Below the pieces are notes generated by a model. That model was not told the DNA's origin, ran no database searches, and saw only the letters and a list, made by a program, of their open reading frames with translations. DNA of 64,000 nucleotides from Escherichia coli O127:H6 str. E2348/69 (lineage in GTDB: Bacteria > Pseudomonadota > Gammaproteobacteria > Enterobacterales > Enterobacteriaceae). This document shows, piece after piece, positions 32,910 through 33,496 of this stretch (position 1 is its first letter; every line of letters begins with the position of its first letter). The stretch is taken from NCBI RefSeq assembly GCF_000026545.1, contig NC_011601.1; one strand, 5' to 3'. Made by a program: the position numbers and the translations under genes.

Positions 32910-33496
32910 GTGACACCGACCCTTTTAAGTGCTTTTTGGACTTACACCCTGATTACCGCCATGACGCCAGGACCGAACAATATTCTCGCCCTTAGCTCTG
33001 CTACGTCGCATGGATTTCGTCAAAGTACCCGTGTGCTGGCAGGGATGAGTCTGGGATTTTTGATTGTGATGTTACTGTGTGCGGGCATTTCATTTTCACT
33101 GGCAGTGATTGACCCGGCAGCGGTACACCTTTTGAGTTGGGCGGGGCGGCATATATTGTCTGGCTGGCGTGGAAAATCGCCACCAGCCCAACAAAGGAAG
33201 ACGGACTTCAGACAAAACCAATCAGTTTTTGGGCCAGCTTTGCTTTGCAGTTTGTGAACGTCAAAATCATTTTGTACGGTGTTACGGCACTGTCAACGTT
33301 TGTTCTGCCGCAAACACAGGCGCTAAGCTGGGTAGTTGGCGTCAGCGTTTTGCTGGCGATGATTGGGACGTTTGGCAATGTGTGCTGGGCGCTGGCGGGG
33401 CATCTGTTTCAGCGATTGTTTCGCCAGTATGGTCGCCAGTTAAATATCGTGCTTGCCCTGTTGCTGGTCTATTGCGCGGTACGCATTTTCTATTAA
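32910..33496 (+). pseudogene. eamB: Cysteine/O-acetylserine exporter EamB (LysE/RhtB family) interrupted by a 1 bp frameshift near 33141-33150
   Basis: ORF track splits the gene into 32910..33257 and 33137..33496; the N-terminal part (MTPTLLSAFWTYTLITAMTPGPNNILALSS) and the C-terminal part are in different frames; total span is 587 bp, one short of an intact 195 aa gene. Confidence 0.75.

Follow-up and report, generated by a model that had tools for sequence, protein, structure and literature searches.

Is the broken reading frame of eamB (yfiK) in Escherichia coli O127:H6 E2348/69 a genuine feature of the strain or a base lost from a homopolymer during sequencing or assembly, and, if it is genuine, is any functional EamB still made? 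We examined the locus in a 64,000-nucleotide stretch of E2348/69 DNA (the window; coordinates below are window positions unless another record is named). The explanation that we favor, at a probability of roughly 0.93, is a genuine and clonally inherited 1-bp deletion (G5 to G4) that made eamB a pseudogene in E2348/69 and its close relatives.

A one-base deletion in eamB

In the window, as in CFT073, ER1709, and Z1323HEC0423, the genes follow one another as srmB, yfiE (minus strand), eamB, grcA (minus strand), and ung, with eamB in its orthologous place, flanked by yfiE and grcA. What used to be the full coding sequence spans 32910-33496 on the plus strand and measures 587 bp (587 mod 3 = 2 by script), whereas the intact orthologue has 588 bp, i.e., 195 codons and a stop, in agreement with the first-pass annotation, which had put the gene 1 bp below an intact length of 195 codons. 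Alignment with eamB of CFT073 shows a single gap column, where GGGGG in CFT073 faces GGGG at 33143-33146 (plus strand) within tgggcggggcggc (GGGCGGGGGCGGC in CFT073 versus GGGCGGGGCGGC in the window), and alignment with the three E2348/69 assemblies gives the same deletion site. In intact alleles, the GGGGG run starts with the third base of codon 78, takes in codon 79, and ends one base into codon 80; the −1 frameshift at codon 80 proposed earlier is thereby located to a G run. When one G is added after 33146, a single 195-codon eamB open reading frame (ORF) results (script), and its product scores 411 bits over the full length (profile 1-195 of 195, cutoff 193 bits) against the NCBIfam equivalog NF007653, "cysteine/O-acetylserine transporter," so that the gene had been named correctly. 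A comparison with eamB of other E. coli genomes had also been proposed, and both CFT073 and Z1323HEC0423 (the nearest other complete genome) carry an intact 588-bp coding sequence (WP_000189209.1), relative to which the frame in the window is disrupted. Since the lesion is a deterministic difference from an orthologue that is otherwise near-identical (one more nucleotide differs in 588), chance need not be considered.

The lesion is already recorded in public annotation and is in that sense an ordinary finding. In CP059840.2, LT827011.1, and LT903847.1, PGAP treats eamB as a pseudogene with the label "frameshifted," and the RefSeq record NZ_LT827011.1 marks precisely 32910-33496 as the eamB pseudogene. 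The approximately 60 annotated genes of the window include no other pseudogene except for insertion sequence transposases. The transposase pseudogenes are also annotated as "frameshifted": one of the IS110 family at 43570-44635 (plus strand), between kgtP and the rRNA operon, and one of the IS4 family at 55918-56873 (plus strand), between bamD and raiA. An IS110-family transposase is frameshifted after kgtP in the distant genome Z1323HEC0423 as well, so this copy may be an old decayed insertion. With respect to yfiE, the LysR-type regulator gene divergent from eamB, we observe a start-site ambiguity only: the longest ORF (31926-32852, minus strand) encodes 308 amino acids from an upstream ATG, as called in one draft genome, and the RefSeq gene model encodes 293 amino acids (882 bp, 31926-32807).

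Translation from the native GTG start yields 115 amino acids (32910-33257, plus strand), of which 79 are native, the last being Gly79, and 36 are out of frame before a stop at 33255-33257. The 36-residue tail (RHILSGWRGKSPPAQQRKTDFRQNQSVFGPALLCSL) is hydrophilic and basic, with six basic residues and one acidic residue. The stranded C-terminal part (33147-33496, plus strand) runs from the second base of codon 80 through codon 195 and the stop and is undamaged. It is contained in an ORF in the other frame (33137-33496, plus strand; 119 amino acids), which begins MGGAAYIVWLAWK... and ends in the native ...VRIFY (C terminus ...LLLVYCAVRIFY). We thus observe two overlapping ORFs on the plus strand, as expected from the earlier statement that the 79 N-terminal codons (...HLLSWAG) and the remainder of the gene are in different frames. 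The first-pass description of the break is borne out in all its particulars. Restart of the C-terminal half from the TTG at 33137 was considered as a route to a second product; it is unlikely, since this TTG has no spaced Shine-Dalgarno sequence upstream and the fragment would start in the middle of helix 3.

The encoded 115-residue product reaches 164 bits against NF007653, which is below the cutoff, and covers profile positions 1 to 89 of 195. Likewise, the repaired product is matched by the Pfam LysE profile (PF01810) over residues 14 to 194, and the encoded product covers positions 1 to 71 of the 193 in that profile only. A hydropathy scan of intact EamB gives hydrophobic stretches at residues 39-75, 115-133, 137-163, and 176-195; only the stretch at 39-75 is retained in the 115-residue product, which therefore lacks the complete set of membrane segments. 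The frame breaks inside the segment DPAAVHLLSWAG|AAYIVWLAWKIA, which we predict to be the third membrane helix. Compared with EamB (YfiK) of K-12 and CFT073, a member of the LysE/RhtB family (NF007653; PF01810), the E2348/69 gene occupies the same locus and, with the G restored, encodes a protein 100% identical to that of CFT073; it differs in having its frame broken at codon 80, with 79 of 195 native residues and a score below the family cutoff. On sequence grounds, the locus is an orthologue by descent and not an intact family member.

Shared deletion in assemblies and sister isolates

A homopolymer is also where a sequencing or assembly error would be looked for, in which case the strain would really have five G residues and an intact eamB. 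The two alternatives left by the first-pass annotation, this error and a real loss-of-function allele, can be told apart by how widely the GGGG run is shared. A 20-kb query (window positions 25000-45000) has 100% matches in three of 5,426 complete E. coli genomes: NZ_LT827011.1 ("EPEC E2348/69 variety 2"), NZ_LT903847.1 (the engineered derivative "EPEC1"), and NZ_CP059840.2 (strain E2348/69). The GGGG allele is present in all three of these RefSeq assemblies of E2348/69 or a derivative, and the full 64-kb window equals NZ_LT827011.1 2871214-2935213 base for base. No complete genome other than these three exceeds 98.9% identity over 20 kb; among the 5,426, the clone is thus represented by the laboratory strain and no other member.

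Illumina MiSeq sequencing is not prone to losing one base in a five-base run. Both LT827011 and LT903847 were sequenced by Illumina MiSeq at >100x, with de novo assembly as well as assembly guided by the older reference (PMC5685641), and the repetition of GGGG in three RefSeq assemblies, including these, speaks against an error. The window and LT827011 are nevertheless not fully independent, given that their sequences are identical and that LT827011 was guided partly by the older reference. For this reason, the case for a real allele is built on the drafts of other isolates and on CP059840.2, a separate assembly that has the same GGGG and shows a 6-bp length difference over the 20 kb compared.

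The allele is further shared by an NCTC-series assembly and by three other isolates whose draft genomes were produced in other projects. GGGG is present in L009 (GCA_900448265.1), L011 (GCA_000249195.2), L012 (GCA_000183005.2), and L013 (GCA_000249135.2), whose identity to the window over 8.3 kb is 100%, 100%, 100%, and 99.99%, respectively; L013 has one single-nucleotide polymorphism (SNP), in srmB (window position 31077), and is thus a distinct isolate. The exact 115-residue product is recorded from 74 contigs in 116 index blocks, with sources that include DEC1B and several NCTC-type accessions, and the exact 119-residue C-terminal ORF is recorded from 10 contigs, with source names that include DEC2B, DEC2D, and 2362-75. 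We take the DEC1 and DEC2 groups and 2362-75 to be O55:H6 members of the EPEC1 clone that includes O127:H6 E2348/69. A literature match for DEC1B, DEC2B, and 2362-75 names them among attaching-effacing strains, and the close kinship of the DEC and 2362-75 isolates with E2348/69 is supported by flanks that are 99.99 to 100% identical.

There are public GGGG calls that do look unreliable and that would fit an error reading. In the 8.3-kb locus of L010 (GCA_949812115.1), eamB has four G residues, srmB, yfiE, and nadB are also split or shortened, and there are 6 gap openings relative to the window; this assembly looks indel-prone, so its frameshift calls are not trustworthy. For CREC-544, alignment of 2.4 kb to the window needs 7 gap openings, which makes an assembly error plausible there, and ER1709, a K-12 derivative, has GGGG too. 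The same G5-to-G4 change in the ER1709 record (NZ_CP030240.1, positions 996-1582 of locus L005) may have arisen newly in the laboratory or may be a homopolymer error of long-read sequencing. For the E2348/69 allele, against this stand the occurrence of GGGG in the NCTC-series assembly and in no fewer than three drafts from other isolates and projects, and the finding of the 119-residue fragment in ten assemblies and of the 115-residue product on 74 contigs. We regard a sequencing or assembly error in E2348/69 as effectively refuted. The concordant assemblies and sister isolates indicate that the eamB disruption is genuine in the organism and no assembly artefact: of the two alternatives, the real allele has held up through the shared GGGG, with loss of function predicted from the truncation, and the sequencing error has fallen to the concordant assemblies. 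The case illustrates that a homopolymer frameshift can be separated from sequencing error without reads, by agreement across platforms and sister isolates.

Age and distribution of the four-G allele

With respect to the age of the deletion, the repaired EamB is 100% identical to WP_000189209.1 of CFT073 and differs from the K-12-type allele by one substitution (T102A). The gene has gathered no second lesion, and the deletion is thus young relative to the diversity within E. coli. Apart from the lost G, the gene departs from intact B2-type alleles at one site only, a synonymous A at 33295 (plus strand; position 387 of the repaired gene), where the other alleles compared have G. Of the 4,546 complete genomes matched by a 61-mer with this A, the three E2348/69 assemblies alone match it exactly, and the base is, as judged from these matches, a clone marker; among the complete genomes, we observe no lineage with A at 33295 and an intact G5. 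Clone isolates differ by at most one SNP in 8.3 kb, so the intact downstream frame is uninformative on selection. The most likely origin of the deletion is replication slippage in the short G run, which would have taken G5 to G4.

Outside the clone, the allele is rare. We searched with a 31-mer centred on GGGG, for which no match can be seeded on genomes with five G residues, and found it in 6 of 5,426 complete genomes (0.11%), which represent four backgrounds, and not in the other 5,420; eamB itself was aligned over at least 80% of the gene in 5,419 of the 5,426. The carriers are the three E2348/69 records, ER1709, O6:H16 2011EL-1370-2, and CREC-544, and eamB is annotated as "frameshifted" in all of them. 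The last three genomes share the G5-to-G4 change at the identical site with E2348/69 but differ in background, with K-12-type A102 and 96 to 97% flank identity to the window, and the different eamB backgrounds indicate that they represent independent events or assembly errors.

Among truncated eamB products, we observe further 115-residue variants with the same junction (...WAGRHILS...), each from 14 to 20 contigs. Two other truncated products show −1 frameshifts elsewhere in the gene, one in an A run near codons 88-89, following ...LAWK (P0005), and one following ...WAGAA (P0009). These and others converge on the same out-of-frame tail, indicating that eamB has been lost recurrently at low frequency. 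The G run thus appears, from these sequence comparisons, to be a minor deletion hot spot with occasional loss of eamB in E. coli, at about 0.1% of complete genomes.

Recurrence at one tract raises the question of a phase-variable (contingency) switch, in which changes in G-tract length would toggle eamB on and off within a population. The four unrelated backgrounds with G5-to-G4 among complete genomes and the several 115-residue variants, each on 14 to 20 contigs, would be in line with such a switch, and eamB resembles known homopolymer phase-variable loci in that a frameshift in a mononucleotide run turns the gene off. Known contingency tracts usually have 7 or more bases. The eamB tract, with merely 4 to 5 bases, is far too short by comparison; a 63-mer for the six-G allele has no exact match among the 5,079 genomes that it matches, leaving no +1 alleles, and G4 stays at 0.11% of complete genomes. 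Furthermore, G4 is found in every clone isolate examined, with no within-clone length polymorphism and no switching back seen. We therefore reject phase variation and assign it practically no probability; the presence of G4 in 6 of 5,426 genomes of four backgrounds, with no six-G allele, fits occasional slippage deletion and not a phase-variable switch.

Possible residual activity and probable consequences of the deletion

A genuine G5-to-G4 deletion could still leave eamB partly functional if ribosomes recoded the break. At the zero-frame codons GCG GGG CGG, a P-site glycine tRNA could slip −1 on G GGG (33143-33146), with GGG re-pairing with GGG one base back; the next codons would then be GCG GCA, which restores ...WAGAAY... 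and the undamaged downstream frame, and low-level wild-type EamB would result. E. coli rarely uses CGG for arginine, and this codon could favor a pause and a slip on the preceding GGG. A tandem slippery heptamer (X XXY YYZ) is absent, however, so that a single-tRNA slip on G GGG is the only option. Folding of the 84 nucleotides downstream (33147-33230) gives nothing out of the ordinary (z = −0.94, with equally good folds in 35 of 200 shuffles), and the two-frame arrangement is limited to one clone and three sporadic genomes, with the nearest other complete genome in frame. Neither heptamer nor downstream structure nor conservation among orthologues, as looked for in a programmed −1 frameshift, is thus seen at eamB, and the intact downstream frame lends no weight to recoding when the isolates are no more than one SNP apart in 8.3 kb. 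Single-tRNA slippage typically occurs at approximately 1% or less. We consider functionally relevant recoding highly improbable; any rescue of EamB would plausibly amount to at most a trace.

Under the clonal-deletion explanation, translation from the native start would give a protein in which membrane helices 1 and 2 and half of helix 3 are joined to the 36-residue hydrophilic nonsense tail. A product of this kind should be unable to form a six-helix LysE-type exporter, and with it the cysteine/O-acetylserine route would be lost. Export of cysteine and O-acetylserine by YfiK/EamB is known for the K-12 protein (Franke et al. 2003, as cited in PMC12038998), and the truncation makes complete loss of EamB transport the most likely outcome. 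Further cysteine export routes described for E. coli are EamA, Bcr, CydDC, and AlaE, and a K-12 eamB mutant shows altered sulfide-release kinetics only (PMC11050555). Given these exporters and the mild K-12 mutant, the phenotype of the loss in E2348/69 is probably mild, and the other described exporters would make it tolerable.

The eamB loss might instead be adaptive or leaky in the EPEC clone and not neutral decay, with the recurrent G5-to-G4 change reflecting selection beyond a hot spot. We consider this very unlikely. If it were true in its adaptive version, losing O-acetylserine/cysteine efflux would change induction of the cysteine regulon or sulfide production in the gut; in its leaky version, the −1 slip on G GGG before CGG would maintain a trickle of wild-type EamB.

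The genuine clonal deletion is of practical relevance in that E2348/69 is the prototype EPEC laboratory strain and one described cysteine exporter is predicted to be inactivated in it, which bears on studies of cysteine, sulfide, or O-acetylserine. Beyond this, the finding is mostly strain bookkeeping, and those who use E2348/69 as a host for work on cysteine pathways should know the state of its eamB.
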